From: Chiloscyllium plagiosum
Taxonomy: Eukaryota
Reading direction: 5' to 3'
NCBI RefSeq assembly: GCF_004010195.1
Contig: NC_057753.1
Location: 2,838,782 to 2,887,317 of the forward strand
Length of the DNA: 48,536 nucleotides
The notes under the pieces are model-generated. The model had not been told where the DNA came from, made no database searches, and saw nothing but the letters and a program-made list of their open reading frames with translations. Numbering within the stretch: position 1 is the first letter of the stretch; each line of letters begins with the position of its first letter. Positions 1 through 38,224 of the stretch are shown one piece after another. A program made the translations under genes and the position numbers.

Positions 1-1584
1 GTTTCCACACAGCAGGGAATCTAATCTGGAAGCTTGGTATGCGTTTTCCATTTTAAGAACCGTGTTTTGAAGGAGCTCTGGTCTTCCATTTCAAAGCCAA
101 ACTGGAAGTCAGGTCTTGCGAAGTTCTAAGAAAACAAAAGGGTAGTTTAGATTGTACGTCTGTGGAACATGCTTATGCTGGTGTGTACCAGGAGCTTGGA
201 AGGGATGCATTTCGTCTCGTAAATTTTACAGTCCGAGAGATAGACTGACACATGAAATTAAATATGGAAAATCCATTATTTTGGGTCCAAATCACCTTTC
301 AAATAAATTATCCAGATCTGCCAAACATTTGAATGGACGAATTGCTTCGAAGTGGAAGGCAAATAGATTTTACAAGAAAGTTCCATTGCTTGCAGCTTTG
401 CGTCTCTGCATGTTGTGACTTTGAAATTGCCCAAGTTGAATGTTCAAGTATGCAATGCTTCTTTCGTTTAATTATAATACTAGAAATCTCTTATTTCCAA
501 CCAAAATAATAAAAAGCTGAATGTCTGTCCAGTTTAAATTGTAGGCTTATCAATGTCTTGTTTGTCCTTCTGCATGTACTGTGGTTGTCGTTAGTATCGA
601 GTTCAAAACTAGTACAAAATTGAAGGCATGTATTCCATTGTAAGGACAGCATTTGACTTCACCACGAAACGCTTGAAGTGAGGAACTTTATTATTTCCAG
701 ACGCGGGCTTCACAAAGTCCTGCATTAAGTATCAAATGTAGAATTTGCAATAATGTTGAAAAACAAGTAAGTGCCAAAAAATTTCATTACAATAATTTCC
801 TCATTCCCAAATTTCTGAAATGGCACTCAAGTTCTCAATTGCTGATTCGAATGCAACATTTCATTAACTTTTTCGGCAGTCATGGCTCATATTGTCAGCC
901 CAGGTTTGTTTTGACGCAACGATTTACATTGGTTATGAAGCTGCATTCAAAATAACAAGTCAAGGTTTGACGCTCTGCTTCTACAGTGTCTTGGAAGTGA
1001 CCTGCTTATAAACCAGGCAGGAAAATTATCATAAACTGCTGCCGTCACCTTGAAGACGGGTTTCAAGTTTCGCGTTCTATGTTCATTGATAATTCAAGAC
1101 AGTTTTGGCAGAGTTATTTAATTTGTTCCTCGCTGTTTCAAAGAACCGAAGGCCTTACTATTTCTAATCAGTTCAAATTTAAGCACATCAGGCCCAGCAG
1201 GAGTGCAGTCTGTCAGCAACCTAAATAAATACATCTAAACTCGTACGTGAACACGTGGACTTAACGACTGAAGCTGAGTTGTGTTCTGGGAAAGGAGGCA
1301 AAAATAATATTGCAAGGGGAATGGAGGAAGTAACAGACAGCCTACAACTACTTCGTGTGAGTTTTTCTTTTGTTTTTTGTTATAATAGAGGTGCAGAGAA
1401 AGAAAGAAAAGAAAAGAGTCAGCGAGCCGAGGAAACTGAGGGACATAAGAATCTGGTGAAATGTCTTTTATCATATGCAGTCCAAAACATAAGACGTTAA
1501 TGCTGCACACTTGGAACAAAGTACTTTCAAATAAAGGTGGGTTTGTTTCTCTTTTTTTAAAATCTGATCTCCTATAACGTTAGT

Positions 1585-2315
1585 GTCATAAAGTCAGAGA
1601 GATCTACAGCATAGAATATTACCATTCAGTCCACATTTCCATGCTGGGGAAAACGACCATATTCTGCAAATTCCATTTTCCAACACCCATGCCATTGCTT
1701 TGGATACATAGAATTAACAGCATGGAAAGTGACCCTTCAGACCAACCCGTTCGCACTGACCAGCTATCTGACTGACCTATCCCATTTGCCAACGTTTGTG
1801 AACAGTTTTGGGCACTGCATACACGGCAGAGTGTGCTGACATAGGCGAGTTCTGAGAGGTTAACAAGGATGATCCCAGGGATGAAGGGCTTATCATATGA
1901 GTAGCGATTGCCGACTCTAGGACTGTGTTCGAAGGAGTGTAGAAGGATGGCGGGAGGTATCTTTGAAACAGAATACGGAGAGCACTGTCTAGAGTCAATT
2001 TTCAGATGTTTTCACGAGTAGCAGAGACTAGGACGAGAGGACACAACCGCAGAGTGACGGGAGGGCCCTTCAAAACTGAAATGAAAGGAATGATTTTCAG
2101 GAAGATGTTGGCAAATGAGTGGAACTCGGTGCCTCAGAAAGCTGTCGAGGTCAGGTTGTTGAGTCGTTATCAGAAAGAGACAGATAGTGTCTTATTTAAT
2201 AACTGGAACAAGGGTTACGGGGAGAAGGCAGGAAAAGGGGCCGAAAAACATATCAGCGATAATCGAATGGTGCTGCAGAGTATTCGACAGAATGCCGAAT
2301 TCTGTTCCTGGATCT
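1585..2315. mobile_element. Old nested CR1 LINE/SINE 3' fragments, shared with duplication copy B
   Basis: Minus-strand 3'-tail-like pieces at about 1585-1790, followed by a degenerate + strand CR1 C-terminus (TRTRGHNRRV...FKTEMK...WNSVPQKAVE) in ORF 2006..2518. Confidence 0.7.
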
Positions 2316-2924
2316 CTTTGACAAGTAGTTTTATAGCTGACCTCCAGTCCCCAGAACCTCTAATGCGGCCTCAAAAGAAATGTCCATTTGTGTTGCGATT
2401 GCCATACTCTTTCTTCCATTGCTTCATTCAACAATCAGCGATACATTTTATCAGTCCTAGACATTTACCTGCTTTAAACCTGCCTGACTACTCAGTATCT
2501 TTTCTGTGCCTATCCTAAATTTTACTATTCTTTCACAGACTTTCACCCTAACTTATATGGTCATCTTAACCATCTGAACACCAACGCAAATTATTCACTT
2601 AGAATAATATTGGCATTCTCTTAGCTATGCATACATTATTGCTATGGTTATTTATTGGTCTTACGGTTTCCAGTGTTATCCTGCTGTCTTTCATAAAACT
2701 TTGCAACAACTTAAAATAAAGGAATATCCTCATGCCAGTACCCTTTTATATCGCCCCTTTTTTCCCCCAACCTCTTTATTGAGTTCTTCTTTGCACATTC
2801 TACACTCCTCCAGTGCTTATAATGTCTTGAGCCTTTTTATTTCTTTTTAAACTGAATTTACGTTATTTTTACCTCATGATCAGTGACACGGGATCAGCTG
2901 GCTGAGATCATTTCCTATGTTGAA

Positions 2925-3020
2925 ATATGTGGGATGCTTCTCGGAGGGTCATTGTGAACTCGATGGGCCACATGGCCAACTCCCTTACTGTAGGGATTCT
3001 ACGATTCTATTCTAATCTAT
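2925..3020 (+). mobile_element. HE1-like SINE 3' tail fragment
   Basis: ggagggtc...gatgggcc...actgtagggattctacgattctattctaatct resembles the HE1/HER1 tail. Also present in copy B at about 29515-29600. Confidence 0.6.
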
Positions 3021-3239
3021 GTGTTCTCCATATTTTCCTGTTATGAAACAGATTTACCTGAAGCATGTGCTTCCAGTCGAATATGGCCAAATCATGTCAT
3101 ATCGAGTTTGTTTCTTTTCTACTGGACAGTTCATGGCCTATAAAGCACTACCATTTCTGTGTTTCTTTTTAATTGTTACTTTATGCCCGAAGAATTCTTT
3201 TTGAAATAAATTCGATGATGTCATTTTTCTTTGCTGCAG

Positions 3240-3440
3240 TCAGAGATGCCCTTCCTCAAAATTGCCTCCTTCTCTGTCTAACCTGAAGACCTTGTAAATC
3301 TCGAATTTTGAGCTACAAAGCCAGCCCCTCGATCAACCATGTCTCACTGACAGCAACGGCATGATGTACTCAAGTTTCAGTTAATGACATCAGCTGATGT
3401 GCCTTCTTCATCAGATTCCATGTCTCAAAATACGTAATAT
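3240..3440 (-). mobile_element. Very old CR1 endonuclease-region fragment
   Basis: Degenerate similarity to the CR1 copy at about 18600-18780 (ctgaag...caacca.gtctc). Confidence 0.45.
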
Positions 3441-4107
3441 TATTTAAATTGGCCAAAATATTCTATGTCGTAGCTGAACTGTGATATTCATATATTTCAG
3501 ATTCATTTGTTGTTATTTCTTATGTCAGCAATTCTTCTTCCCTGACTGAACATTCTCTCTGGATCCCAATTATTTCTGTGTTTTTTTTTTACACGCACCT
3601 CAACAACACAAGCACGAAGAGATTAACGTGGAAGGATGACTGATTCATCACACTGCAGGTGCAACGCATCCACCTTCTACAGAACACACCACTCACAAAA
3701 CAGTGCAATAGTCCCAGAAACCTAAGGCCAGAAACGTGTTCAGCTATTTCTCCAGCTAAGCGTCTATCTGGACAAAATCAGTTTGATACTGCTTAGCGTG
3801 TGCCACTGAAAGTGATCCAAAGTGGAGAACACTGCCTGGAAGTGAAATTGTAACACTTTCAAGTCAGGTATTCTAGAAAGCATTGGGAATAACTGAAGAT
3901 AAATAGTCTGCAGAGTTACAGTTAAAATGCAGGCAGATGGCACAAAGCCATAAAATTAAATGCAGAGCTGGTCCAAGCAGTACCAGCTGATTTGCTTCCT
4001 TGTGCATCATAAGACATACATGACTCTGTATCGTCAAAATACACACTGAAGTAGTTCGAGAAGTTCAACCATCTGCCTATCCAACAGTGGCTATACATTG
4101 AACTATA

Positions 4108-5871
4108 TAAAGAACAAAAACAAAGAATGTTTACACACCAGGAACAGGCCGTTTGGCCCTCAAAGACAGAGCCGATCCAAATCCATTGTCTAAACCTTGC
4201 GCCCAATTCCTAAACATCTGCATATCTCTGCTTCCCACCTGCTCATGCATCTGTCCAGACGCATCTTACATGCATCCACCGTGCCTGCCTCTACTACCTT
4301 TGCTGGCAACGCGTTCCAGGCTCCTACCAAACTCTGTGTGAAGTACTTGCGCGTGTATCCCCCTTAAACTTTTTACCTCTAACATTGAAAGGGTGACATT
4401 TCGTTATTGAATCCTGGGAAAAACTTTATCTCTATCTATCCTATCTATTCCCTTCATGATTTTGTAGACCTCACTCAAGTCTCACCTCAATCTCCTACTT
4501 TCTAATGAAAACAATCCAAACCTACTCAACCTTCCTTTATACCTAGCACCTTCCCTACCAGGCAACATCCTCGTAAATCTTCTCTGCACCCTCTCCAAAG
4601 TGTTCACATCTTTTTTGGTAATGTGAGGACCAGAACTGTACACAGTATTCTAAATGTGGCCGAAGCAATGTGTACAATTTTAACATGACCTGCCATCTCT
4701 TATACCCCATGCCCCGTCCGATGAACTCAAGCATATCGTATACCTTCTTGACCACTCTATCCACCTGTGAAGCAACCTTAAGATAAAATGGACCTAAACT
4801 CCCATATCTCTCTGCTCATCAACTTTTCCCAAGGCTCTTCAGTTTACTATATAATTGGCTCTAGAATTAGTCTTCCCAAAATTCATCTCCAACATATTTG
4901 CCTGGATTGAACTCCATCTGCCACTTCTTCACCCAACTCTCCAGTCTATCTACATTCTGCTGTATTCTTTGAAAATCCCCTATGCTTTCAGCTACTTCAC
5001 CAATCTTCCTGCCATCTGCAAACTTGCTGATCATACTAACAGTGCTTCCAAATCATTTACGTATATCACAAACATCAGTGGCCCAGCACTGATCCCTGTG
5101 GAAAACAATTGGTCGCCTTTCTACATTTCGAGAAACTCCATTCAACTACTACTCTCTGTCCCCTGTTGCTCAACTGGTTCTTTATCCAACTAGCTAGAAC
5201 ACCCTGCATACCATATGACTTCACTTTCTTCATTATTCTTTCATGGGGAACCTTATCAAACGCCTTATAAAATCCATGTATATGACAGCTACAGCCATTC
5301 CCTCACCAATCAATTTGGTAACTTCCACAAAGAACTTTATTAACTTAGTAAGGAACGATCACCCCCGCACAAAACCATGTTGGCTATCACTGATAAGCCC
5401 ATTATTTTCCAAATATAAATAGATTGTATACCTCAGTACCTTCTCCAGCAACTTTCCCACCACTGACGTCAGGCTTACTAGTCCATAGTTACCCGAAATA
5501 TTCCTACTACCCTTCTTGTACAGTCGGACAACATGAGCAACCTTCCAGTACTCCGGCACCTCACATGCGTTGAAGGATGCTACAAAGATATCTGTCAGGG
5601 CCCCAGGTATTTCCTCTCTCGCCTCCCTCACCAACCTGGGATAGCTATCATCCGGTCCTGGGGATTTGTCCACCTTATTAAACTCGAGCCTATCCAACAC
5701 ATCTTCCCTACTTCCGCCAACGTGATCCAAAGTAATCACACTTAAATCTCTAACCTCAATATTCATCATGTCCTTCCCCTCAGTGAACACTGATGCAAAA
5801 TAATCATTCAGAATCTCACCCATTCTCTTATGTTAGACACATATCCATCCTTCTTTATCCTTTAGTGGACA
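4108..5871 (-). mobile_element. CR1/HER1-type LINE, 5'-truncated and degenerate
   Basis: Minus-strand ORF fragments [40 protein letters not shown] and RPHLEYCVQFWS. The 3' tail (aagaacaaa repeats) is at about 4108. Absent from duplication copy B. Confidence 0.93.
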
Positions 5872-5889
5872 AGGCTGTCTTATAGGCTT

Positions 5890-7050
5890 GTCTTGATAGA
5901 AAAAAGACAAGAGATTTGGGTGATCCGCTTTGCTTCCACAGAGAACCAAGCTGGGCACATTGTATGGTAATGATACAGTTCCTCACTTGAATTGGGGAGT
6001 CAAGCACCAACTACAAAACGAGCACCCAACCTAATATCAAACATCCCTTACTTATTCTGTCATCTTTTTTGGACTCACATATGTGAGCAACGCCTACAAC
6101 AAATGAATCGCAAAGTAGGGCAACTGCTGAAAATCTTCAAGGAAAAGAGAAAATGCTGGATACATGCTTGAGAACAAACATGGCCATCGACTCATATAGG
6201 TCTTCAGCAGAGAAAAAAGAATATTTTGGGTCATCAAGTCTGTGCTGGTCAAAAGCAAGTAGGTATCTATGGAGAGATTGTTTTAAAAATCCCATCGTCC
6301 AGAATGAATTGATATAGAACTTGAAGAGCAATGTAAACTCAGATGTGCAACAAAAATTGAAAATACGACAAGCAAAACGTTTCTCCCTTAGAACGATCCT
6401 GTGGAAAAATGAAGCTAGTAATATAAATCATGTAGTCATAGGATGGCCAGCAGTGGAAACCTCATTTGAACACAAGTGTCAGAAATACTGAGGCACTCAA
6501 ATAGTTAAATACTGAATAGAGGTTTCTTTTAAAGTGATTATGTGAGAAAAAGGAAGTCATTTTATGGTAGTGAGGTAATCAAAGAGGCCAGTAGTGAAGG
6601 AAAACGATGGAGGGTCATGGATTCAGATCCACCGTGAGGGAACAGTATCTGTCCTCGCCATGTAAACTCCCACAGATTACAGAGCACAGGTAATGGGGGA
6701 AAGCTCCAGCTAATATTCTTTGAAGAAAGTTAATGTCAGTTATCACTGTCAGCTGAGGGTAGAAATTTAGAAAAAGAAAAATAACTCCTTTGGTTTCAAT
6801 TTCCTGGTATTCATTCACCACTTCTTAATTCTGCCAAAGAAAAATCTGTACCTGCTCTCTACTACACTGTGTCCGTCAATGTAGTTGTCAGTCACTTGAT
6901 GTTTTTGTTCTTTGATATAAAAAATGTTGAGAATTGGGAGATGCAGAGGGAATGATTCGAAGATAGCAGCTACTCCAGTTCTTGATTTCTGTCCTCGGTC
7001 TTCATGTGACTGAACAGAGCCGCAGACTTTGACACATGAGGCATTATATC
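5890..7050 (+). repeat. Segmental duplication copy A, part 2 (paralogous to about 29795-30730)
   Basis: ttccacagagaacca, gtgagcaacgcctacaacaaatgaa and gatggccag.agtggaaacctcat occur in both copies. Confidence 0.9.
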
Positions 7051-7742
7051 CCTTAAGTTGCTGGGAGAAAGAGACCAGCATTTACTTAAGGGACATAATG
7101 CCTCATGTGTCAAAATTTGCTGCTCCGTAATGACACATGAAGACCGAGGACAGAAATCAAGACCTGGAGTAGCTGCTACCTTCGAATCATTCCCTCTGCA
7201 TCTCCCAATTCTCAACATTTTTTATATCAAAGACCAAAAACATCAAGTGACTGACAACTACATTGACGGACACAGTGTAGTAGAGAGCAGGTACAGATTT
7301 TTCTTTGGCAGAATTAAGAAGTGGTGAATGAATACCAGGAAATTGAAACCAAAGGAGTTATTTTTCTTTTTCTAAATTTCTACCCTCAGCTGACAGTGAT
7401 AACTGACATTAACTTTCTTCAAAGAATATTAGCTGGAGCTTTCCCCCATTACCTGTGCTCTGTAATCTGTGGGAGTTTACATGGCGAGGACAGATACTGT
7501 TCCCTCACGGTGGATCTGAATCCATGACCCTCCATCGTTTTCCTTCACTACTGGCCTCTTTGATTACCTCACTACCATAAAATGACTTCCTTTTTCTCAC
7601 ATAATCACTTTAAAAGAAACCTCTATTCAGTATTTAACTATTTGAGTGCCTCAGTATTTCTGACAGTTGTGTTCAAATGAGGTTTCCACTGCTGGCCATC
7701 CTATGACTACATGATTTTATATTACGAGCTTCATTTTTCCAC
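6401..7742. repeat. Large inverted repeat (palindrome): arms 6401-7058 and 7084-7742, 25 nt spacer
   Basis: Arms are reverse complements of each other, with identical 68 aa ORFs at 6615..6821(-) and 7321..7527(+). About 14 substitutions and 1 indel counted by eye. Confidence 0.98.
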
Positions 7743-8486
7743 TAATGGCTAATGTGTAAGCAGATACTTTACAAAAATCAAAAAATCATTACATTAACAC
7801 TGATCTAAACGGCTTACCTAATTTCTAATATTAGAAAATTCTGAATGCAATCACAACGGATAAACACAGTACTCAGTTTGAATGCAGTGACAGAGTTCTT
7901 TTTATTCATTTGTGTGACTTGGGCTTGTCAGGCTGGCCAGCATTTATAGCCCATCCATATTTGTCCTGAAGAAGATAGTGGTGAGCTGCCTTCTTGATTC
8001 GCTAAGTGCACTTGCTGTATGTTGATCCACAATAGCAGTGTGGAGTGAATTCCATGATTTTCTTCTTACGTCTGTGAAGGAACGGCAGTATATATCCAAC
8101 TGTGGGTGGAGTATCTTGCAGGTAGTGGTGTTCCCAAGTATCTGCTGCTCTTGTCCTTCATGATGGAAGTATCTTTGGCCTTGGAAGATAATGCCTAAGG
8201 ATCTTTGGTGAATTTCTGAAGTGCATCTCGTAGATAGGACATATTTTTGCCCCTGAGCATCGGTGGTGGACGGATTGAATGTTTGCAGATGTGGTACCAA
8301 TCAAGCGGGTTACTTTGTTCTGGATGAGGTCAACCTTCTTCAGTGTTGTTTGAGCCGCACCATCCAGGCATGTGGGGAGTATTCTATTACACTTCTGACT
8401 TGCGGTGGATAGAATTTGGGGTTTCTGGAAGTGAGTTACTCGCTACAGTATCCCTCGTTTCCCACATGGTCTATTAGCCACTGTGG
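7743..8486 (-). repeat. Inverted paralogue of about 25437-26190 (3' end of an L2/CR1-like LINE plus its unique flank)
   Basis: taatggct...cagatactttacaaaa...ctgaatgcaatcacaac is the reverse complement of about 26040-26190. It continues into the LINE 3' end on the minus strand (about 7900-8486). Confidence 0.85.
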
Positions 8487-8494
8487 TGAAGTGC

Positions 8495-8712
8495 GGGGAC
8501 TGCAGGGGTTTTCCACAGCTTGAATTGAATCAAGAGAAGTCTCTGCTTTTGTCATCTTGAGAAGAGCATAGAGGTAAAACGAGATTAATATGCTAAGCCG
8601 GGCAAGCAGGAAGAGTCTTATTAAATTGCATTTACTGCGAGTTAGCACAGCCATGATGGATTCAATGATCAGCTGTGCACTGTAAACGCCCAATAACTTT
8701 ATTTGAGCGAAA
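8495..8712 (+). repeat. Segmental duplication copy A, part 3 (paralogous to about 32047-32272)
   Basis: gggactgcag...aatatgctaagc.gggcaagcag...catgatggattcaatgatca...atttgagcg present in both copies in direct orientation. Confidence 0.85.
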
Positions 8713-10310
8713 AGCGATCGGTGGATGAAGTTGATAGGTCAGAAGGGGCAGTGATGGACGAGTCCCGAGGGCGGTGCCGATTTGGAGGCTTGGGACTGAG
8801 ATAATGCGGGGGGAGGGGAAATTAAGGAAGCTTTTTCAAACTACATTTATCCCGTGTGGTTGCAGGGTCCCAAGGCAAATATGAGGCGTTCTTCCTACAG
8901 GCTTCAGGTGGCAACAGTTTGGCGGTGGAGACGACCCAGGACCTGCATATCCTTGATGGAGTGGGAGGAGGAGTTGAAGTGTTAGGCCACGGGGCAGTGG
9001 GTTTGGTGGGTGCAGAAGTCCCAGAAATGTTCTCTGAAATGATCTGCAGGAAGTAGTCCTGTCTCCCTGATGTCGAGGAGACCACACCGGGTGCAACGAA
9101 TGCAATCGATAACATTGGTAGAGGTGCAGATGAATTTCTGATGGTCGTGGAAGAATCCCTTGGGACCTTGGATGGAAGTGAAGGGAGTTGTGTGAGAGCA
9201 GGCTTTGCACTTTCTGCGGTGGAAAGGGAAATGTGCCAGGAGTGGGTGTTGGATGGTTGGGGAGGGTTGTGGACTTGACGAGGGAGTGACGGATGGAATG
9301 GTCTTTTCAGAATGCTGATAGCGGTGGGGAGAGTAATATATCTCTGATGGTGGGGTCCGTTTTGAGGTGGCAGAAATGGTGGAAGATGATTCATTGTATG
9401 TGAAGGTTGGTGTGATGGATGAAGAGTATCAGACGGTTCTGTCCTTGTTACGTTGGGAAGGATGGGGTTCAAGGGCGGTGGTGCATGAAGAGAAGGAGAT
9501 GCACTGGAGGACATCATCAACCACATTGGAAGGGAAGTTGGGACTTGTGGAAGAAGGAGGTCATCTGGGACTTTCTGAAGTGGAATTGCTCACCCTGGGA
9601 ACAGATGCGGCAGTGGTGGAGAACTGGTAATAAGTCATCGCGTTTTTAAAGGAGCTAGGGTGGGAGGAGGGGCGTTTAGGTAGCTGAGGATGTTAGTGAG
9701 CATGTAGCATAATTCTGTGGTTAGTCAGTCGCCAGAGTTAGTGATGGAGAGGTTCAGGAAGGGGAAGGAGGTTGCTGAGATGGTCCAGGTGAATTTGATG
9801 TCTCGGTGGAAGATGTTAGTAACGTTGATGAACTGTGCAAGTTTGTGAATCTTAGGAATGAGGTAGAATCGACCAGTGCGGGGTTCATGGACAATGAGGT
9901 TAGAGGCTGTGGATGGGAGATCCCCAGAGGTGATGAGACTGAGGATGGTCTGGGAGATGATGGTTTGGTAATGGCAGGTGAGGTCATGATCAAGTGGACA
10001 GTGGGAGGAGGTGCCTGTCAGTCGGTGCCTGGCTTGGGCAGTGTAGAGGTTGGTGCATCAAACAACTGCTGTACTCTCCATGTTTGTCGATTTAATGATG
10101 AGGTTCGGTTTTGAGGGCTGCACGTTGTGAGTGCCAGAAATTGGAGTGGATCAGGTGGTTGGACAGGTTAAGGCGCTTGATGTCACGGCGGCAGTTTGAA
10201 ATGCAAGGAGGTCAAGGGTGTAGCAGACCAGCATGGGGTGTCCAGGTGATGGAGTGCGTTGGATGCGGGAGAAGGGGTCCTCATTGGGTGAGCAGGTGTC
10301 TTGGTTAAAA
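8713..10310 (-). mobile_element. Penelope-like retroelement (RT plus GIY-YIG endonuclease), degenerate and internally deleted
   Basis: Minus-strand translation gives RFYLIPKIHK (about 9841-9871), QFINVTNIFHRDIKFTWTIS, and a GIY-YIG-type segment NVIDCIRCTRCGLLDIRETG...DHFREH (about 9030-9120). Confidence 0.88.
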
Positions 10311-10792
10311 AGTAGACATGAAGGCAGTGGCGGTGGAAGAAATGTTCAAAATCGCAACATGAATTAAACTTATCAATCTGGACTTTCGAGGGCGAGAAGT
10401 GAAACCTTTACTGAGGACATAGTGCATGTGTGGACAACACTTTCAGCTGGAGATGAGCTGCATGTACGACAGTTCGAAAATGAATATGCGCATCCCCCCT
10501 TTCCAAAACTTTCATACACTTGGAACTGCAAAGATTAATTGCTCACAGTATTAATCACGTGCTAATTCTACACATACGAAGCCCTACAAAGCTGTCCTGG
10601 CTGAAAGAAATGGGCAATGTTTGACACAACGCTAGGTAGAGCGTTGGATATTACTGAAAACAATTTCCAAAAATCAAACTTGTAGACTCTCCGACATATT
10701 CTTAAGTTCGTATTTTATCAATCGATTTCAAGCCAAGTGTCCGATGTGACATGGAGAATAAAATACAATTATGAAGATAGATATATGCCAAG

Positions 10793-11428
10793 CTAGACTT
10801 CCCTAATTTGTTTATGAAACATACTAAACAATTGGCTGAACGGATATTTCAGCCCATTTGTTAACTCGGCTCTGAATATTCTCTGTGTCCCAGCACAAAT
10901 AAACGGGTTAATGCAAGAGCTCAGTAACAGAAGCATAAATCCGCCCTGTTTCAGAATAAATGTGGAATTAGTAACATTGGATCCTGAGGAATATGTAATA
11001 CTTGCAAATCGTACATAAGAGATTGTTGTAAAATATAACAAATTTAAAAGAATAAAACTGCCCGAGATAGCAAAGTTTAAAATAATGGACTTCTTCCGCT
11101 TCTCCATCGCTGAATCATTCTGATTCCCTTCATTACTCTCAGTCCGCAGTCTTCTCCGCGTTCTATTGGCCGCTACAATGTGCCTGACAGTCAGAACATT
11201 GAGCAGTAAAATCAGAATGAATGGGAGGAAAGGGTTGAAAATAGATCGATCCCAATCATAGGTGGTCCAAGCTATTGATGCATACTGTGATAATTTAACG
11301 CTGCAGAACCAGGGTATGTTATTAATTATGTACATAGGTTCGATTTGAAAATATTTGATAACATTTTACATGCAGGTCAGTATGATTACGATTACGATCA
11401 CCTTAACGGCCACTTTCTCACTACAATA
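10793..11428 (-). pseudogene. GPR139-like: GPR139/GPR142-like class A GPCR pseudogene (ICL2/TM4 to C-terminus only)
   Basis: Reads YCSEKVAVKVIVIVIILTCM*NVIKYFQIEPMYIINNIPWFC...LPFILILLLNVLTVRHI...MEKRKKSI...SSCINPFICAGTQRIFR and aligns with the intact gene. In-frame TAA at 11366-11368 where the paralogue has Lys. No clear TM1-TM3 or exon 1 upstream. NPxxY is altered to NPFIC. Confidence 0.9.
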
Positions 11429-15215: not shown

Positions 15216-15590
15216 AGTGACGGACCCGGCATTTCTTTTTTGACACGATCATTATAGTGCAACAGTAATTACAATTCAAAATGAACTTCCTTATCTTTCA
15301 AATAATTGTGGACGTCTTCGTTTTGCTTTATGCCATAATTCTTTTTTACTGCCAATGAGGACGATAGAATCCAAAGGTGAGGTATTTGTTCCCATGTCCT
15401 ATCTCGAGCTGTTTCTATCCTCGAAAGTATCACTTGCTTTTGTCTACGTATTTCCTTATGCATATTTCTGCCTAGCTATGGTGTCATGAGCAGTGTCCAA
15501 CTCTCCTTTTTGTTCTTTCCATCTCTTTACTACCCTCTATTTGATCACACTTTCTAATGAAAATAACGCCTGCCTTAATAAATAATTATA

Positions 15591-18500
15591 CAAAGAGAAC
15601 AAAGAACAAAGAAAATTTACAGCCCAGGAACAGGCCCTTCGGCTCTCCAAGTCAGAGCCAATCCAAATCCACTGTCTAAACCTATCGCCCAATTCCTACG
15701 CATCTGTATCCCTCTGCTCCCCACCTACTCATGCATCTGTCCAGACGCACCTTAAACGAATCTACCGTGCCTGCCTCCACTACCTCTGTAGGCAACACGT
15801 TCCAGACATCCACTACCCTCTGTGTAAAGTACTTGCCGCGTGTATCCCCGTTAAACTTTTCACCTCTCACCTTGAACGCGTGACCTCTCGTTATTCAATC
15901 CCCTCAGCCTGGGAGAAAGATTATCTCTATCGACCCTGTTTATACCCTTCATGATTTTGTAGACCTCAATCAGGTCCTCCCTCAACCTCCTTTTTTTCTA
16001 ATAAAAGCAATCCTAACCTACTCAACCTCTCTTCATAGCTAGCACCTTCTATGCCAGGCAACATCGTCGTAAACCTTCTCTGCACTCTCTCCAAAGCGTC
16101 CACATCCTTTTGGTAATGTGGCGACCAGAACTGTACACAGTATTCTAAATGTGGCCGAACCAATGTCTTGTACAATTTTAACATGACCTGCTGCTCTTTT
16201 ACTCAATACCCCGTCCAATGAAGGCAAGCATACCATATGTTTTCTTGACCACTCTGTCCACCTGTGCAGCCACCTTCGTGGAGCAATGGACCTCACCTCT
16301 GAGATCTCTCTGCCCATCAACTTTTACCAAGGCTCTTCCATTTACTGTATAACTCGCTCCAGAATTAGACTCCTAAAAATGTAACAATTCACATTTGCCT
16401 GGATTGAACACCATCTGTTACTTGTCCGCCCAACTCTCTAATCGATCTATATTCTCCCGTATTCCTTGACAGTCCCCTATGTTTTCTGCTATTCCATCAA
16501 TCTTCTTGTCATCTGCAAACTTGCTGATCAGATCCACAACGCCCTCTTCCAGATCATTTATGTATATTACAAGCCACAGTGGCCCCAGCACTGATCCCTG
16601 TGGGACACCACTGGTCACCTTTCTCCATTTTCAGAAACTCCCTTCAACTACTACTCTCTGTCTCCTGTTGCTCAACCAGTACTTTATCCACCTATTTAGA
16701 ACACCCTGCACACAATGTGACTTCAACTTCTTCATTAGTTTACCATTGGAAACCTTATCAAACGCCTTTTTAAAGTCCATCTTTATGACATCTACAGCTC
16801 TTCTTTCATCTATCAACGTGTCACTTCCTCAAAGAACTCAATTAAGTTGATAAGGCACGATCTACCCCGCACAAAACCATGCTGTCTATCACTAATAAAC
16901 CTATTCTTTTCCAAATATAAATAGATTTTATCCCTCAGTGCCTTCTCCAGCAACTTCCCACCACTGATGTTAGGTTCACTGGTCTGTAGTTGCCTGGAGT
17001 ATTAATACTACCTTTTTTGAACAGGCCGGTAACCTGAGCAAACCTGCAGTCCTCCAGCACTTCACCTGTGTTTAACGATGCTGCAACTATATCTGTCAGG
17101 GCCCCAGCTATTTCCTTTCTCACCTCCCTCAGCAACCTGGGAAAGATCCCATCTCATCCTGGGGATTTGTCCACCTTAATATTCTTTAGTATACCCAACA
17201 CATCTTCGCACCTACTGTCAACGTGATCCAGAGTAAACAAACTTCTATCTCTAGTCTCAGCATTCATCATTTCCCGTTCCTCAGTGAACACAGATGCAAA
17301 GTATTCATTCAGAGTCTCAACCATTTTCTCAGTCTTGACACACAACCTTCCTTCCTTATCCTTTATTGGACCAACCCTTTCTCTGGTTACCCTCTTGTTT
17401 CAAATATAAGAATAAGAGACCTTGGGATTTTCCCAAATTCTGCTCGCCAAAGCTATTTCATGACCCTTTTTAGCCCGTTTGATTCCTCGTTTATGAATGG
17501 TACTACTCACCCGATATTCCTCCAAGGGACATTCTGTTCTTAGCTGCTTGGATCTTATTTACGCTTCCCTTTTTCTCTTTGTTAGTCACACGATTTCTCC
17601 TGTCATCCACGGTCCACGAATCTTGCCTTTCCTATCACTTGTTTTCAAAGGGACATGTCTTCCCTGCGCTATCTTCATGTTATCTTTGAACGCCTCCCAC
17701 ATATCAAATGTGGACTTTCCTTCAAATAGCTGTATCCAATCGACATTTCCCAGCTCCTGCCTAATTTTGACATCATAGACCTAGGCCCAGTTTAGCACTC
17801 ATCACTTAGGACTACTCTCATCTTTGTCGATGAGTATTCTAAAACTTACAGAATTGTTATCACTATTCCTAAAGGAATCACCCACTGCAACCTTTACCAC
17901 GTGTCCTGGCTCATTCCGCAACACCAAGTCAATATGGCCCTTTCCCTTGTTGGTGTATTAACATACGACTGGAGAAAACATTCCTGGGCGCTCCTAACAA
18001 ACTCTGCCCCATTCAGACTTCTAACACGAAGTGTATCCCAATCAGTGTTGGGAAAGTTAAAATCTCCCATCACCACTACCCTGTTGCTTCTACACCTTTC
18101 CATAATCTGTTTACCTATTTGTTTTCTACTTCATGCTCACTCTTGGGGTGCCTGTAATACAGCCCCACCAATGTAACTGCGCCCTTCTTATTTCTCAGTT
18201 CCACCCATAACACCTCACTGTTCAAGACCTCCATAGCGTCCTTCATTAACACAGCCATGATATTAGATTAGATTACTTACAGTGTGGAAACAGGCCCTTC
18301 GGCCCAACAAGTCCACACCGCCCCACCGAAGCGCAACCCACCCATACCCCTACATTTACCCCTTACCTAACACTACGGGCAATTTCGCATGGCCAATTCA
18401 CCTGACCTGCACATCTTTGGACTGTGGGAGGAAACCGGAGCACCCAGAGGAAACCCACGCAGACACGGGGAGAACGTGCAAACTCCACACAGTCAGTCGC

Positions 18501-20149: not shown

Positions 20150-20266
20150 ATCATGTCCGAAACGTTGATCGTCCTGCTCCTCGGATGCTGCCTGACTTGC
20201 TGTGCTTTTCCAGCGACATACTCTCGACCTTGATAAAGCACCAGCATCTGCAGTCCTCACTTTCTC
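20150..20266 (+). mobile_element. Penelope-like terminal (pLTR) fragment
   Basis: ccgaaacgttgat...ctgctcctc...gctgtgcttttcc...cagcatctgcagtcct matches the terminus at about 40056-40156. Confidence 0.8.
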
Positions 20267-20670
20267 CTCCTCAATATTTTAACCATCAGACATGTTCTCG
20301 CAGCTGCTAATGCTCACTGATGGCCAGGAGCCCATAGGAATGCATGGTATCAGATTGACCCAGAAATGGAGAAAAGGAGAAAGTCCAAAATTTTATTTTC
20401 TGTGTCTCTGGAAGCTTAATCCTGTCCTAATCATTAATTCTTATAACATTCCCCTGTGTTCAATTTGCAAATATTTTTCTTTTATTTGTCACCTTCAAAT
20501 TCCACCGAGTCCAATGTTATTCTGGAGGAAAGCGGTTATATGCTTCAGCTCTTGAGCTCCTGCGTTAACCAGTTCATTTATGCAGGTACCCAGGACAAAT
20601 TTGGAAAGGAGTTAATGAATGGGATAAACACTCTTTGAATCTGACTGTTACGTTATTGAAACGTGGGCAA
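20263..20670 (+). pseudogene. GPR139-like: GPR139/GPR142-like GPCR pseudogene fragment (end of TM5 to C-terminus)
   Basis: LLNILTIRHVLAA...*...QIDPEMEKRRKSKILF / VSGSLILS* / ILEESGYMLQLLSSCVNQFIYAGTQDKFGKELMNG. At least two in-frame stops and two frameshifts relative to the intact paralogue. Confidence 0.9.
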
Positions 20671-23339: not shown

Positions 23340-26035
23340 GTGGAGGTGACGGCCTTGTCGTATTATCACTGGACTATTAATCCAGAAACACAAAATCATG
23401 TTCTGGGGACCTGGGTTCGAATCTCGTTAGGGTAGTTGATGGAATTTGAATTCAATAAAATAAATCTGGTTACTGCTGACCATGAAGCCATTATCAATTT
23501 CCGGAAAAACCCACTTGGTTCACCAATGTCCACAAGGGAATGAAATCTGCCATCTTTGCCTGGTCTGGCCTAGTTGCGACTCCAGAGCCGCACCAATGTG
23601 GTTCACTCTCAACTGCCTTCTGAAATGGCCTAGCAAGCCATTCAGTCATGTCATTCGCTAGAAACGCGCGAGAAAGAAAAGGAAACCACTAGTTACCTTG
23701 GAATCGAAGGAGTAAATGGCAAAAACACAAAAAGCCTTGTCGACCATGCAAAATCCTCCTCAGCAACATCAGGGGGCGAGTGCCGAAAATGGGAGAGCTG
23801 TCTCACAGACAAGCCAAGCAACAACCTGACCAAGTCATTCTTATGGAATCATAACTTACAGTAACACTCCAGACAAAACCATTACCATTCCTGCATATGT
23901 CCTGTCCCAATGGCAGGGCAGACACAGCAGAGATAGCGGCACAGTGGGGTACAGATGGAAGGGAGTTGCCCTGAGAGTCTTTGACATCGACTCCGAACTC
24001 CATTAAGTTTCATGGCTTCAGGTTAAATATGGGCAAGGAAAACACTTCCTGGTTGCACGTACCGTGCTACCTCAGCTGATGAATTAGTACTCCTCCATGT
24101 TGAACAACACTTTGAGGAAGTACTGAGGGTGGCAAGGGCACAAAATGTACTTTGGGTGGGAGGTTTCAGTGTTCACCACCAAGAGTGGCTCGGCATCAGC
24201 ATGACTGACCGAGCTGGCCAGGTCGGGATATAAATGCTAGACTGGGTCTGCGGCAGCTGGTGATGCAACTAATAGGAGGAAAAAGCATATTTGACCTCAT
24301 TCTTACAAATCTGCCGATTGCAGAAGTATCTGTCTATGACCGAACGGGTAAAACCCGTCACCATGTGGAGACCAAGCCCCGCCTTCACATTAAGAACAGA
24401 ACCCATCGTTTTGTGTGGCACTATCATCGTGCTGAATGGAACAGACTTCGAATCGATCTGGCAGTTCAAGACTGGGCATGCATGAGGCGCTGTGGGCCAT
24501 CAACAGCAGCAAAACTGTACTCCAGCACAATCTGCAAACTCATGGTCTGGCATATTCCCCCACTCAGCCATTACAATAAAGCCACTGGATCAACACTGGT
24601 TCAAAGGAGAGTGTAGCAGGGCATGCCAGGTGCAGCATCAGGCATACCTAAAACTGAAGTGTCAACATGGTGAGGCGACCACACAGGACAACTTCTGTGC
24701 CAAACGGTATGAACAGCAATTGACAGATAGAGCAAAGTGATCCCGCAGCCAATGGATCCGAAATAAGATCTGCAGTCCATCCACATCCAGTCGTGCATGT
24801 TGGTGGACAATTCAACAACTCACTGGTGCAGGAGGCTCCTCCAATATCCCTTTCCTCAATGATAGAGGAGCTCAGCACATCTGTGCAAAGGATAAGGCTG
24901 ATGCATTCACAATAGTCTTCAGTTAGAAGTGCCGACTGGATGATCCGTCTCGGGCTCCGTCAGTGGTCCACAACATCACAGTATCAATACCCAGCCAATT
25001 CGATTCACTCCACGTGCTATCAAGAAACGACTGGAGGCACTGGATACTGCAAAAGCAATGCGCCCTGGTAATATTCTAACAATACTACTGAAAACACCAC
25101 TCTAGAATTTGCCGCTGCCTTTGTCAACCTCTTCCAGTATAGTTACAACACAGGCTTCTATCTGACAATATGCAAAATTGCCCAGTTACGTCCTGTACAC
25201 CGAAAGCAGGACAAATCCAATCCAGCCAAATACCGCCCAATCAGTCTACTTTCTGTCATCAGTAAGGAGTGGAATGTGTCATCAACAGTGCTATCAAGCA
25301 ACACCGATAGCACTGTTGATCAGGCACACTCACCACCATCTTTGACATTCAACGGTACGACCATCACTGAATCCTGCACTGTCAACATCCTTATGGTTAC
25401 CATTGACGAGATACTGAACTGGACTCACCACGTAAACACAGTGGCTCAAAGACCAGGTCAGAGACGAGGGATATTGCGACAAGTAACTCACCTCCTGGCA
25501 CACCACCTTATGTCTTCCACAAGTCAAGAGTGTGATAGAATACTCTCCCCTTGCCTGGATGGTGCAGCTCCAACAACACTCAAGAAGTTTGACGTCATCC
25601 AGGACAAAGCAATCCACTGATTGGTACCACATCTACAATCAGTTCATGCGTTCACCGCGGGTGCTCAGTATCAGAAGTTTGTACTATATACGAGATGAAA
25701 TAAAGAAATTCACCAAAGATCATTAGACATCACCTTCCAAAACTAAAATCACTTCCATCCAGAAGGACAAGAGCAGCAGATACTTGGGAACACCGTCACC
25801 TGCAAAGTACACTTCAAACCACTCATCATACGCACCTGGATATATGCTGCCTTTCCTTCACAGTCGTTTGGTCAAAATCCTGGAATTCTCTCCCCCCAGC
25901 GTTGTGAGTCAACAAACAGCAAGTAGACTGCAGCGATCCAAGAAGGCAGCTCACCACTGCCTTGTTAAAGACAAATAGAATTGGGCTATCAATGCTGGAC
26001 AGTCAGATAAGCCCAAGTCTCACAAATGAATTTAA
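23340..26035 (+). mobile_element. L2/CR1-clade LINE of a second family with tRNA-like 5' head; endonuclease retained, RT core deleted
   Basis: Head has B-box-like gggttcgaatc (about 23413). Endonuclease-like GKSIFDLILTN and VWHYHRAEW. KIAQLRPVHRKQDKSNPAKYRPISLL at about 25175-25250 jumps directly to a C-terminal segment LTFNGTTI...LNWTHHVN. Confidence 0.8.
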
Positions 26036-26656
26036 AATAATCTGTCACTGCATTTAAACTGAGTACAATGTTCATGGTTGTGATTGCATTCAGAATTTCC
26101 CAATATTGGCATTTAGTTAAGATATTTAGATCAGTGCTGATATGATGATTTTTCGATTTTGTAAAGTATCTGTTTCAACATCAGCCATTAGACGTTGATA
26201 CCAATATGCCATATTTAAATGGTAGGTTTATACTTGACATCAGAAAATTGATTCATTTGTGTAGAAATTATGTTATCGTTTACTACAATGAATGGAAGGG
26301 TTTTTTTTTCTTATTTAAAACATTCCCGAGCAATCATTCTGGGATTGTATCAACAATATTAAGTTTTGGTAACATTTAAAGAGTTTATTCCTATGCACAA
26401 ATAAAGATGCAAACAGAAGGGAAAAGAAACTACAGGAAATTCAGAGGGTACATCGGGTATGGGCATACGGAACATGGATTAATGTTTTGTGCAGCAAAGA
26501 ATGATAGGTACACATACAAAGAGAAAAAAATCAGAGTTCGAAACAGATAGAGACCTCATGCAGAGACAAAGAGTTGCAGGTACCTGTATAAGGAGTTTCC
26601 AAAACCCATTTGGGAAAGATTGGCTCTGATACACTGTGATGTTTTTGTCTGTTGTG

Positions 26657-29600
26657 AAAGCTTGTTATGCATTTTCTATTTTAAAGACTGTATTTGGAAG
26701 GTACACTGGTCTTCTGTGTTTAAAAAAATCAAACTGTAAGTCACGACTGTTAAACGAAATTTTAAGAAAAACGGTCCTTTCGACTGGTTAATTTTGCAAT
26801 GCTGGAGTCAGAATGATACATGAAATTAAATATGGAAGATCTTTCAGATATTTGTCCAAATCGCGTTTCAAATATATACTCCAGCTCTACCAAAACATTT
26901 GAATGGATAAAATGCTAAGAAGTAGAAGGTAAATAGTTTTTACGTGAAGGTGCCATTGCTTGCAGTTTTGCGTCTCTTGTTGTGACTTCAAAATTGTCGA
27001 AGTGGATGTATGTAAGTGTGCAATGCTTATTTCGTGTATTTATAGTAATAAAAATCTCTTATTTCCAACACAATGAAAAAAGGCTGAGTGTCAGTCCAGC
27101 TTAATATTGTAGGCACATTAATGTTTTTTCTCCCCTTTCTGCATGTATTGATGCTTCTCGTGTTGTTAGTACCTCGTTCAAAACTGAAATTGATGAAAGT
27201 ATTGGAATTCCAACGTATGGACAGCATATGATGTCCCCATTAAATCTTTGCCGTAAGGAATTTTATTCTTTCCTTGCACAGTCTTCACGAAGTCTTGCAT
27301 TACGTATCAAATGTGGAATTTGCAATAGTGGTGAAAAACAAGTAAGTGCGAAGTAATTCCATTACTATAATTTTCTCATTCCCAAATTTCTTAAATGCCA
27401 TTCACGTTCTCAATTGCTGATTCGAATGTAACATTTTCATTCACTGTCTCGGGAGTCATGGCTCAAATTGTCAGCCCAGTTTTATTTTGACCCAAAGTTT
27501 TGCAATGGTTATGAAGCTGCATTCAAAACAGCAAGTCAAAGTTGCACGCTCTGCTTCGATAGTGCCTCAGAAGTGACCTGATTGTTAACCAGACAGGAAA
27601 ATTAGCATAAACTGCTGTGGTCACCTTGAAGATGATTTTCACCATTTGCGATCCATGTTCACTGTTAATTAAAGGCATTTTCGGGCAGAGTTATTTAATA
27701 TTCTGCTGGCTACTTCAAATAACCGAAGGCCTCAATATTCCTGATAAGTTCAAATTTAAGCTTATCAGACGCAACAGTCATTCAGCCTGTCAACAACATA
27801 AATCAATACATGTACACTTGCACATGAACACGTGGACTCATTGACTCCAACTATGATGTGTTCTTTAGATAACAGGCAAAAAGAATACCGCAAGTGAAAT
27901 GGAGAAAAGGAAAGACATCCTACAAGCATTTCACATGACTTCGTTTTCTTGTTATACGAGAGGTGCGGAGAAAGAAAGAAAGAAAAACCTGGCGAGTCGA
28001 GGAAAATGATGGAAATACGTATCTGGCAAAATGTCTTTTATCATTTGTCGTTCAAAACATAAGACATTAATGCTGCACACTTGGAACAAAGAGCATTCAA
28101 ACAAAGGTTTTTAACTTTCCTTTTTTTTCAAAGCTGATCTCCTTTAACATTAGAGTCATAAATTCACAGAGATCTAGAGCACAGAATATAGCCCTTCAAT
28201 CCATCATGCCCACGCTGGTGCAAACGACCTTTCTATGCAAATTCCATTTTCCAACACGCGGTCCATAGGTTTGGATGCCATGACATAGAATTAAAAACAT
28301 GGAAAGCGACCCTTCACTCCAACTCCCTCGCACTGACCAGATATCGTTAACCGACCTAATTTGATTGACCAACATTTGTGAACAGTTTTGGGCACCGGAA
28401 ACACGGAGGGTGTGCTGGCAGAGAGGGATTTCTGAGAGGTTTATTTACAAGGATGAAGAGCTTGTCATATGAGAAGCCGACTCTGGGCCTGATTTCCAAG
28501 GTGTGTAGAAGGATGACGGGAAGTTTATTTGAAACAGAATACGGAGAGAACTGGTTAGAGGCAATATGGAGAAGACGTTTTCATGAGTAGCAGAGACTAG
28601 GACGAGAGGACACAACCGCAGAGAGACGGGACTGCCCTTCAAAACTGAGAAGAAGAAAATGTTTATTGTTGGAAGATGTTGGCAAATGAGTGGAATTCTT
28701 TGCCTCAGAAAGCTGTCGAGGTGAGGTAATTGAGTCTTTATCAGAAAGAGACAGATAATGTCTGATTTATAAACTGGATCGAGGATTGCAGGGAGAAGGC
28801 AGGAAAAGGTGCTGAGAAACATATCAGCCATTATCGACTGGTGCTACAGAAGTTTTAAACCGGATGCCTAATTCTGCTCATGGATCTCATTGATATATAG
28901 ACTTATGGCTGGCCTCCAATCCTCCAGTACCTCTAATATGGCCTCAATGGAAGTAACTTTGTTTTTTGCAATGCATTTCTCTTTCTTCCCTTGCTTGATT
29001 TAACCGTCAGAGACGCATTGAATTTTAGTCCTGGGCAATTACCTGTTTTATGCCTGCCAGACTACTCAGTATCTTCTCTGTTCCAATCCTAAATTTGATA
29101 ATTCCTTCACTGACTTTCATGCTGACTTTCTGGCCATCATGTCCATTTCACTACTGAACACTGACGCAAATTATTCACTTTGAATCCGACCAGGATTTTC
29201 TTAGCTATGAAAACATTATTGTTGTGATTATTTATTGTCCTTGTGGTTTCCAGTGTTATCCTTCGATCCTTCATAAACCTGTGCAATAACTTAAAATAGC
29301 GGGACGTCCTGCTGTCGAAACCCTTTTATATCGCTGTTTTAGTCTTCCTAACCTCCTTCTTGAGTACTATCTTGCACATTCTACACTCTTCTGTGTCTTA
29401 TGTTGTCTTGTGCCCGCGGTATACCCAATAATTCTTTTTTTTTACTGAATTTAAACTTCATGGTCAGGTTCACAGGAGCAGATAGGCCTTGTGGTTCCTG
29501 TGTTGAAACATATGGAAGGCTTTTCGGATGGTCAGTGAGAACTCGTTCGGCCAAATGGCCAACTCCCAAACTGTAGGGATTCCATAATTCTCTTCTAATC

Positions 29601-30730
29601 TATGTATTCTCGATTTTCTCCTGTTATGGGAGAGATGAACCTGAAGTATCTGCTTTCAGTCCAATATGGCCAAATCATGTTATCTTCTTAGTTTTGTTTC
29701 TCTTGGACAGTTCACGATCTAAAAAGCGCTCCAACAAATGTGATGGTTTCGTTGTTACTTTTACGTTCTGCCCAAAGGACTACAGTGAGATGAATGTTAG
29801 TCAAAGGGCAGGAGAGTAGGGTGAACAGCTGTGTTTCCACAGAGAACCATGCTGGGAACATTGTATTGTAAAGATTCAGTTACTCAATTTAATTGGGTGC
29901 CAGGGACGAACTACAAAACGAGAACGATACCGATTATTAAAAATCCCTTACTTTGTCAGCGTTTTGGGACTCAGAACTGTGAGCAACGCCTACAACAAAT
30001 GAAACACAAAGTAGGGATGCTACTGAAAATTTTAAATGAAAAGAAAAAATGCTGGAGGTACACTGGAGGACACCCATGACCATTGACTCATGCAGGTCTT
30101 CAGCACAGGACAAAGGGTTATTTTGAACTACCGGGTTTGCACTGATAAAAAGCAAGCAGGTATCCATGCAGATATATACACACACACTTTTTTTCCATAT
30201 GCTCCAGAATGAAGTCATATAGAATTTGAAGAGCAACGTAAGCTTTGAGGTGTGACAGGAATTGAAAATACTACAAATGAAACGTTTCCTGCCTATGAAC
30301 GATCCTGTTGGAAGATGAAGCTAGCAAGAAAGGAACACAAAGTCAGAAGATGGCCAGGAGTGGAAACCTCATCTGAACACAACTGTCAGACAGACAAAAG
30401 CACTAAAATGTCCCGAGCCGTGGAACCTGCCACAGACGATAGCGCATACGTAATAGGCTAAAGCTCTATCTAAGAAGTTTATATCATCCATCACTGTCAG
30501 GCGAGGATAGAAATTCGGAACAGAAAACAATTCATTTCGTTTTAATTTGCTGGTAATATCTCGCCACTTCTGAAAGGTTTGTGCCTCTTCTCTGCTACTC
30601 ACTGCCCCTCAACATGTTTGGCAATCACTTGATTCGAAAATAACGTCTACACAGGGTCTTGAATTCTGTCCTATGTCTGCACGTGACAGAACAGAGCAGC
30701 GAATTTTGATGCATGAGACATTATGTTCCT
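26657..30730 (+). repeat. Segmental duplication copy B (paralogous to about 28-3190 plus 5890-7050)
   Basis: Collinear match to copy A. It lacks the A-specific interval 3200-5870 and about 150 bp corresponding to A 6500-6650. Confidence 0.92.
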
Positions 30731-31249
30731 GGGTTTTCCAGCTCACCCAAAATGTTCAGAAAAACTCTCCCGTCCACCCACCAGATTCATGACTCCCTCC
30801 GCTCCTCTGCATTCTCAAGATTTTTTGGATCAGAGAACAAAAACTTCGGTCAACAGACATTAATGTTTCTGTGCATGCTCCATACACTGTCTGTAACTGC
30901 TTCCTTTCTGGATAAAAAAGATTCACTAGAAGGAACAGTGAGATTCAGTTCATCCTGGCAATGGGAAAACCGCTGACAAACTACAACTATGACAACAGCA
31001 TTTAACACAATTAACAGCATCAACCCTTCCTTGACACTTCAAGTCAGCGTTGACATTCCTCACTTCAAAAGAGTGAGTGCATGCCCGCTCTATTTACCCT
31101 TCAAGAAACTGCAATCGTTTCTGTAAAATGAAAAATGTGAGTGTGTTCATTTTAGCAAACGAACTCAGTGAGTCCAATAAAGATTCATCCCTTTGCCTGA
31201 CATCCTTACTGATGTACCTTGCTTCTTATGAATCAATCTGGAGGATCAG

Positions 31250-31490
31250 ATAGGCATCTACCAGGGCAGTGGAAAAGACAAGGGGAAAATCCGTCTGGAA
31301 GCACAAGGGCAGTAGATCAACGTTCGTTCACTGTCACTGATTCAATATTCTGGAATTTCCTCATTCAGGACATTGTGAGTCAACCTGTGCACTGCAACCA
31401 TTCAAGATATAAGTTCATCAGCACATTCTCAAGTCTAACTATGAACCCAGTGATGCCCATTTCCCACGAATGAATAAGAATAAAAAGAAA
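31250..31490 (+). mobile_element. Degenerate 3' fragment of the L2/CR1-like family
   Basis: caagggcagtagat...ttcactgtcactg...ctggaattt...gatgcccatttcccacgaatgaataa resembles about 25760-26030. Confidence 0.6.
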
Positions 31491-37313: not shown

Positions 37314-38224
37314 CTAACTTAACAGTTATTGTGATCCTCTCTCGAAGAAGGTGCGGTATTTCCGCATGCATCACTTATTATCTGGTGTCAATGGCGGTAT
37401 CAGATCTCATGGTCATAGTGACAGCTGTCATATTAAACCGTGTTGCTGGAATTTATTTCCCTTTCAGTTTTCTCTCCATCACGCCCGTGTGCAGTTTGTG
37501 CTCTGCATTCAATTATGGATCTATTGATAGTTCTACATATTTAACAGTTGCTTTCACCATTGATCGATTTATAGCCATCTGTTCTCAGACGCTCAAAATA
37601 ACATATTGCACCAGGAGAATGGCGATGCGCATTGTAGGAATTGTGATCATATTAAGTTGCATGAAAAATGCATTTTTGTACTTCATATATGAACCGAGGT
37701 ACATGGTAAAAAATATACCCTGGTTCTGTAACATAAAAGATATGTTTTTCATTTCACTTGCATGGACTGCATACGACTGGATTCGTTCAATTTTAACCAC
37801 TTGTCTCCCATTCATTCTGATTTTACTGCTCAATGTTCTGACCGTCAGATGCATTCTCGTGGCTAATAGAGCCCGCACGAGACTCCAGAACCAGAATATC
37901 GGAAAAAATCAGAGCGATGCAGAGCTAGAGAAGCGGAAAAAGTCAATTGTTTTGCTCTTTGCCATTTCAGGAAGTTTCCTTCTGTTCAATGCATTGTACT
38001 TTATAACAATCCTGTACGTCCGCATTGGGAATCTTACGTATGCTTCGCGTTCTGACTTTAATAATCTCCCTTTTGTTCTCAATGAAAGTGCAATTATGCT
38101 TCAGTTTTTGAGTACCTGCATGAACCCATTTATTTATGCTGGAACTCAGAATAAGTTCAGGGCTGAGTTAAACAATATGGTGCAACATCCTTGGAGACTT
38201 TTACTCAAAAATCTGAAGATCTGA
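37314..38224 (+). CDS. GPR139-like: GPR139/GPR142-like class A GPCR, coding exon 2 (spliced product 326 aa)
   Basis: Polypyrimidine tract plus TTACAG acceptor ending at 37313. Uninterrupted frame with TM1 PANL, TM2 MAVSD, TM3 Cys and DRF, ECL2 WFC, TM5 LPF and TM7 NPFIY. Stop TGA at 38222-38224. Confidence 0.95.

Follow-up and report, generated by a model that had tools for sequence, protein, structure and literature searches.

The window, by which we mean the whole stretch of 48,536 nt analysed here, lies in a receptor cluster and contains one long open exon at 37256-38224 (+), encoding a receptor of the Pfam family 7tm_1 (E 4e-23). The three Atlas clusters nearest to this receptor bear the name "probable G-protein coupled receptor 139" (0.97-0.98), a lead obtained without alignment, and a PDB sequence search with it gave 0 matches at E 1e-10. 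In addition, a 200-codon piece at 11428-10829 (-; 55.5%) holds the 3' part only of a receptor, and a decayed receptor fragment occupies 20243-20626 (+; 37%). The DNA is vertebrate and, judging by LINE remains with RVT_1, probably shark-like: Pfam recognised RVT_1 at 41670-42482 and Exo_endo_phos_2 at 45937-46401, and returned no family for the open reading frame pieces 8985-9428, 9728-10057, 25072-25617, and 7947-8300. The minus-strand reading frame pieces at 8822-10114 are presumably Penelope-like, and the LINE sequences we take to be of the L2/CR1 type.

The subject of this study is an inverted repeat with arms at 6401-7058 (658 nt) and 7084-7742 (659 nt), separated by a 25-nt spacer. This geometry had been reported in a first-pass annotation of the same DNA and is borne out by alignment and by self-blastn of the arms (2210 bits, E=0.0). 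Within the spacer, a further 6-bp stem could pair beyond a 3-nt bulge and enclose a loop of 8 nt, and the folding energy of the 1342-nt palindrome as RNA is -1208 kcal/mol. Together with its surroundings and an older paralogue, block B, the palindrome resolves into the following features:

6401-6896 (+): X, the outer left arm and apparently the original copy, which departs from the right arm at 3 sites within 6401-6476 and extends the paralogy to block B on the plus strand (30307-30630)
6897-6952 (+): W, a 56-bp piece flanked by TGAT on either side, absent at the equivalent place in block B
6953-7058 (+): Y, the 106-bp left arm of an apparently old hairpin, with 11 differences from Y', present in a contig of organism C (run X18, record 17)
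7059-7083 (no strand): the 25-nt spacer, spanned by record 1 of run X1 and by record 17 of run X18
7084-7189 (-): Y', the right arm of the same hairpin
7190-7245 (+): W', apparently the ancestral sequence to the right of the hairpin, a direct match to block B 30789-30847
7246-7742 (-): X', the outer right arm, apparently a young inverted copy of X, with which it shares window-specific letters
7742-8493 (-): a', an inverted piece paralogous to 25429-26191 (78% over 767)
8496-8712 (+): g, the return to plus-strand paralogy, matching 32047-32274
26655-30870 (+): block B, whose stretch 26655-30730 is a ~77% paralogue of 27-3192 and 5894-7053, and which keeps X, Y, and W' and is without Y', W, and X'

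The order of segments is therefore c-d-X-W-Y-loop-Y'-W'-X'-a'-g in the copy that carries the palindrome, and a-b-c-d-X-Y-(short stem)-Z-W'-f-g in block B. The W sequence is missing at block B's left position and present on its right in the W' orientation, where 30789-30847 matches 7186-7244 directly (76%) and 6898-6956 in inverted orientation (78%). W is also lacking at this place in contigs of organisms B and C and in those of another copy in organism A, and a W-less joint leading from 7185 to 7242, with 56 positions skipped and 4 bp common to both sides, occurs in all three DNA runs compared below (X1, X11, and X18). We infer that W was probably copied from the right side, namely from W'. 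Block B does not fold at the equivalent place (z=0.95), and with its ~77% identity it agrees with the earlier proposal that the palindrome is younger than the old block duplication. The accompanying statement that the paralogous region is single copy holds only in part, as 30789-30847 matches both arms.

On the right side of the palindrome, no convincing match to f of block B (30860-32046, ~1.2 kb before g) was found in 7245-10800, nor did the copy with the palindrome yield a second copy of b (26192-26655) or of f. The inverted piece a' consists of a LINE 3' end and, since it also includes ~155 bp of unique flanking DNA beyond that end, must be a displaced part of the block rather than an independent LINE insertion. 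W' ends in ATCA, a 4-bp homology to the X/Y border (TGAT), and X' and a' meet at 7742 with 1 bp (G) of homology; both junction homologies, 4 bp at 7245 and 1 bp at 7742, are far below assembler word length. Read segment by segment, the palindrome thus combines sequence from either side, joined at three young junctions (7245, 7742, and ~8495), the latter two of which the first-pass annotation had missed. Splicing or 3' transduction as a source of the X'-a' joint was considered and rejected, there being no GT after a in block B and no AG before 6401. Elsewhere in the same copy, ~2.7 kb at 3192-5894 are absent from block B and consist mostly of LINE sequence related to 15584-17371 and 42680-44260.

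The arms appear to contain two age classes of sequence. They differ at 15 sites (14 substitutions and 1 indel), and the label "near-perfect" that they had been given masks an uneven distribution: 11 of the 15 crowd the inner 106 bp, against 4 in the outer 552 bp (Fisher p=9e-7), and a stretch of 431 bp (6477-6907) is free of any difference, a gap found in 0 of 200,000 uniform placements. By segment, 6401-6476 holds 3, 6477-6896 none, 6897-6952 one, 6953-7008 two, and 7009-7058 nine. Scored against block B, the 11 differences between Y and Y' split 5 and 6 between the arms, a pattern that would be expected as for two long-separated copies. At 8 of the 8 listed sites checked, drawn from 40 rows among the matches listed, both arms carry the same window letter and the other copy in X1, organism B, and organism C carry another; block B sides with these outgroups at 5 of the 6 sites that can be aligned. 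These window-specific letters shared by X and X' suggest that the copying of X' is more recent than those changes in the lineage of the window.

Among the 24 sequencing runs listed by a search, those of organism A matched up to 0.67 of the sampled words, those of organism B 0.09-0.12, and that of organism C 0.06. Four runs were compared to 6990-8620 at at least 86% likeness, namely X1 (organism A), X11 (organism B), X18 (organism C), and the RNA run X21, and the contig evidence refers to the matches listed, 8 per DNA run (for X1, 8 of 6390). Record 1 of X1 (134 nt, depth 7.2) covers 6991-7124 and crosses the loop with 0 differences, and thus the centre of the palindrome is real. Record 17 of X18 (1382 nt, depth 8.6) corresponds to X at its positions 53-554, to the outer part of Y without W at 555-606, and to 7009-7244 at 607-842, while its remaining 540 nt beyond 7244 have no match among the matches listed; this one contig of organism C accordingly presents a single X and a short hairpin, followed by unrelated DNA. 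Because it combines one outer arm with the short hairpin, and because the organism A contig spans the loop, the ~106-bp hairpin is real and old and the long arms are young. The hairpin would then be older than the split from organism C, although the contigs of both B and C could be paralogues, and not orthologues, of the window copy. That the palindrome extends an older hairpin with ~106-bp arms, common to organism C, had escaped the earlier look.

Two of the eight organism B contigs among the matches listed (contigs 12 and 13) match a' to 7742, where they cease to match and continue with 9 unlike letters, and one of the eight (contig 16) starts to match at 8494, preceded by 83 unlike letters. 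Arm depth in organism B, at 12.8-13.6 compared with 13.8 for a and 12.3 for g, gives a ratio of 1.01. No contig bridging 7245, 7742, or ~8495 is among the matches listed, in which contigs show presence and not absence. As to whether the long arms are real, the centre (6991-7124) is thus spanned by a contig, but the outer arms are unconfirmed among the matches listed. At 7309-7680, X1 also holds at least two further arm copies of 93-95% identity at depths of about 6 and 3 (16 differences from the arm in 224 positions and 8 in 148), and organism C holds three further such copies; the cluster thus contains this unit as a small block in several copies.

Read depth in X1, where contig depth is a rough measure of copy number, bears on the same question. 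The five depth values of the window-type arm (10.3, 7.75, 8.0, 5.9, and 7.4; mean 7.9) stand in a ratio of 0.94 to those of the loop (7.2) and g (9.5), whereas a ratio of 2 is expected of a homozygote. In a rough simulation that assumes 100- or 150-nt reads, such values had a probability of 0.001-0.005 in a homozygous carrier, 0.02-0.05 in a heterozygote, and 0.4 with no extra arm, and the two exact contigs by themselves gave 0.05-0.08 (homozygous) and 0.18-0.22 (heterozygote). The simulation left out the rows at 7509 (8.0) and 7542 (5.9), whose depths are in line with the five values above, and two higher rows at 7707 (20.4) and 7190 (28). The higher rows are next to arm differences or to branch points, at which the depths of overlapping contigs add up, and they could hint at both arm types in X1. 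Since arm depth is about that of loop and g, X1 is probably not a homozygous carrier of the long form. Half coverage of the arms, named at the outset as a sign of misassembly, is hence what X1 shows, but X1 may not be the assembled individual. Summed over X1 contigs of at least 86% likeness, depth is 14-45 on the arm and 5,000-140,000 on most of the neighbouring LINE, so the palindrome is not high-copy, in line with its earlier description as non-transposon-looking.

On balance, we lean towards regarding the long palindrome as a real, young, and probably polymorphic rearrangement that grew from an older imperfect hairpin, and, with the same slight preference, towards regarding the long form as a recent allele that X1 probably lacks. 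The right side looks like a rearranged block whose 1-4 bp junction homologies are such as fold-back template switching leaves, and a short inverted repeat pre-existed at the centre, as the organism C contig with Y-loop-Y'-W' and a single X indicates. In our model, the ancestral order would have been X-Y-loop-Y'-W'-f-g with a upstream, as in that one contig and partly in block B. During replication or break repair, a new strand would fold back on Y:Y', and its 3' end (ATCA, the end of W') would anneal to the TGAT at the X/Y border, from where X would be copied backwards to form X' (~500 bp). Synthesis would then jump to the upstream piece a through 1 bp of homology, copy ~750 bp, and return at g, such that f (~1.2 kb) is dropped; a longer fold-back duplication, later eroded by deletion, would be an equivalent route. 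Finally, the W' bulge would have been copied into the left arm, yielding W. Several observations weigh against a real allele: the three junctions are unbridged among the matches listed, arm depth in X1 about equals that of loop and g, the predicted upstream source of a would lie just outside the window, and the structure in organism C comes from one contig.

The same depth result would also follow from an assembly artefact, a less probable though serious alternative, in which the assembler crossed the real old hairpin between haplotypes or near-identical copies, one of them locally inverted and rearranged, and so placed two alleles of X as the arms. In its favour, the window-type letters of a' (7824, 7826, 7867, and 8067) and a close sibling occur in X1 at similar depths (about 4 and about 4-6, respectively), as two alleles would show, 4 differences in 552 bp are allele-like, and a sized gap of 154 N at 41471-41624, inside a LINE, suggests a gapped scaffold. 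Fold-back and chimeric read artefacts are known (PMC12870357), but a simple fold-back of a read would make the arms identical and would not put W on both sides. Moreover, the joints at 7245 and 7742 do not lie in repeats of word length, so that only the switch inside the hairpin could be false, and the X-W, X'-a', and a'-g joints, with 1-4 bp of homology or less, must exist in real DNA anyway; a mis-join hence presupposes about four separate prior events, and X1, with 0.67 of sampled words matched, may not be the assembled individual. It is because a real allele requires two events against about four that we rank it above the mis-join, despite the depth result. The very sequence of a mis-join would also arise in reality, and without template switching, if a standard and an inverted allele had recombined by crossing-over within the self-complementary hairpin, an exchange that would duplicate X and lose f. 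Receptor copies occur in both orientations, and inversions have therefore happened in the cluster; nevertheless, crossing-over appears improbable, as it would take an earlier inversion, a deletion, and an existing copy of W, about four events like the mis-join, and no inverted allele is among the matches listed.

It is more doubtful still that an old long palindrome has had its arms kept alike by arm-to-arm gene conversion. Conversion would fit the derived letters common to both arms and the way in which the differences cluster around the loop and within the outer 76 bp, leaving 431 bp identical in between; however, among the matches listed the organism C contig has a single X only and the organism B contigs lack both outer joints, with single-copy arm depth. 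The least credible of the readings is a MITE or foldback element, a Penelope-type palindromic insertion, or a hairpin-RNA (endo-siRNA or miRNA) locus. Any transcript would indeed fold into a very stable duplex at the energy given above, but in organism C the core shows no greater conservation than X (16/236 versus 45/502 differences, p=0.39). For a mobile element, the copy number in X1 is low and the arms are colinear with an ordinary duplicated block; no target-site duplication of at least 4 bp was found within 15 bp of either palindrome end, and the hammerhead core motif, searched as a short pattern, is absent from 6401-7742, although the same motif does match at 45726.

If fold-back template switching produced the palindrome, the mutational process is already known and this instance has a readable history. 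For short inverted repeats of 42-229 bp, PMC7999016 describes priming by fold-back, and PMC10766186 describes how palindromic arms erode into an inverted duplication plus deletion. With such INV-DUP-DEL rearrangements (ODIRA and MMBIR/FoSTeS models), our palindrome has in common a centre on a short inverted repeat that was there beforehand, young arms that are nearly identical, 0-4 bp of homology at the distal joints, and an apparent loss of adjacent sequence. Our case differs from them in being very small (0.5 kb of copied arm), non-coding, and set in a shark-like germline, with a seed hairpin that is an old imperfect 106-bp repeat common to several species. Origin dependence and a circular intermediate are ODIRA's own features, and the likeness here is one of sequence structure alone. 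A second parallel is the growth of RNA hairpins by template switching, for which PMC8794818 describes the copying of a bulge to the other half of the stem. As in PMC8794818 and PMC10710096, our palindrome would have had its stem extended and a bulge (here W') copied to the other arm, and in our case an apparent stem series leads from 4-5 bp (block B) to 106 bp and to 658 bp; unlike our 56-500 bp tracts, for which no transcript is known, the stems in those papers are short RNA stems (rRNA, miRNA).

Unlike Penelope-type palindromic insertions, the palindrome has no hammerhead core and no target-site duplication, is low-copy, and is made of locally duplicated DNA. Mammalian sex-chromosome palindromes are said to be maintained by conversion, with arms of kb to Mb, long spacers, and genes, and to be common to several species. 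The present arms resemble them in being far closer to each other than to paralogues and in sharing lineage-specific letters, but among the matches listed the long arm is not seen in organisms B or C. We found no publications on this locus or receptor cluster in the literature searched, which mostly excluded subscription journals.

If the long form is real, it would be a compact record, with its strata dated and its joints legible, of how a long palindrome with a short spacer grew out of a small old hairpin in the germline of a vertebrate, inside an inversion-rich receptor cluster. Its instability could then be tested directly by comparing carriers with non-carriers. A mis-join would instead caution that old hairpins of ~100 bp can give rise to false long palindromes during assembly; in neither case is a new system implied. 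The instability of long palindromes with short spacers, invoked in the first-pass annotation, is indeed established, and since PMC7999016 presents long near-identical ones with short spacers as more recombinogenic, a real allele should not be expected to last. A hairpin or cruciform could form and instability is to be expected, with no function indicated. The suggestion that the palindrome promotes rearrangement of the receptor cluster found no support, as no role was shown and the structure looks rather like the product of a rearrangement. The region is non-coding and most likely neutral DNA between GPR139-like receptor genes.

In the window, Rfam gave 0 matches at gathering score, and two sub-threshold miRNA matches (80 of 144 and 29.8 of 91 bits) were discarded as reflections of the stem shape. 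X21, a sample of 12,955,460 records that makes up about 2% of a single-cell polyA run, has none on 6990-7924, and the 53 X21 reads that matched are less than 95% alike and lie on LINE sequence. This blank is weak and does not count against transcription, nor is it evidence that no RNA run was named as holding the sequence among the 24 runs listed. The idea that the palindrome yields dsRNA is accordingly unsupported in this shallow sample, and silencing of block B by siRNAs is unlikely, 65-78% identity making it a poor target; only the closer sister copies in X1 would be plausible siRNA targets. A germline palindrome still segregating and growing stepwise (4-5, 106, 162 with W, and 658 bp), which once transcribed would release siRNAs directed at sister units of the GPR139-like cluster with 92-95% identity, is a speculative scenario to which we give little credence.

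Two smaller structures were noted near the end of the window. At 45637-45808, a scan found no target-site duplication beside a small palindrome with 82-nt arms (93%) and an 8-nt loop, which contains the hammerhead-core-like motif at 45726 and fits a Penelope-type mini-insertion. Within the LINE at 46308-46656, a 179-bp unit is repeated in tandem (1.9 copies, 94% alike), reflecting either local duplication or assembly overlap.
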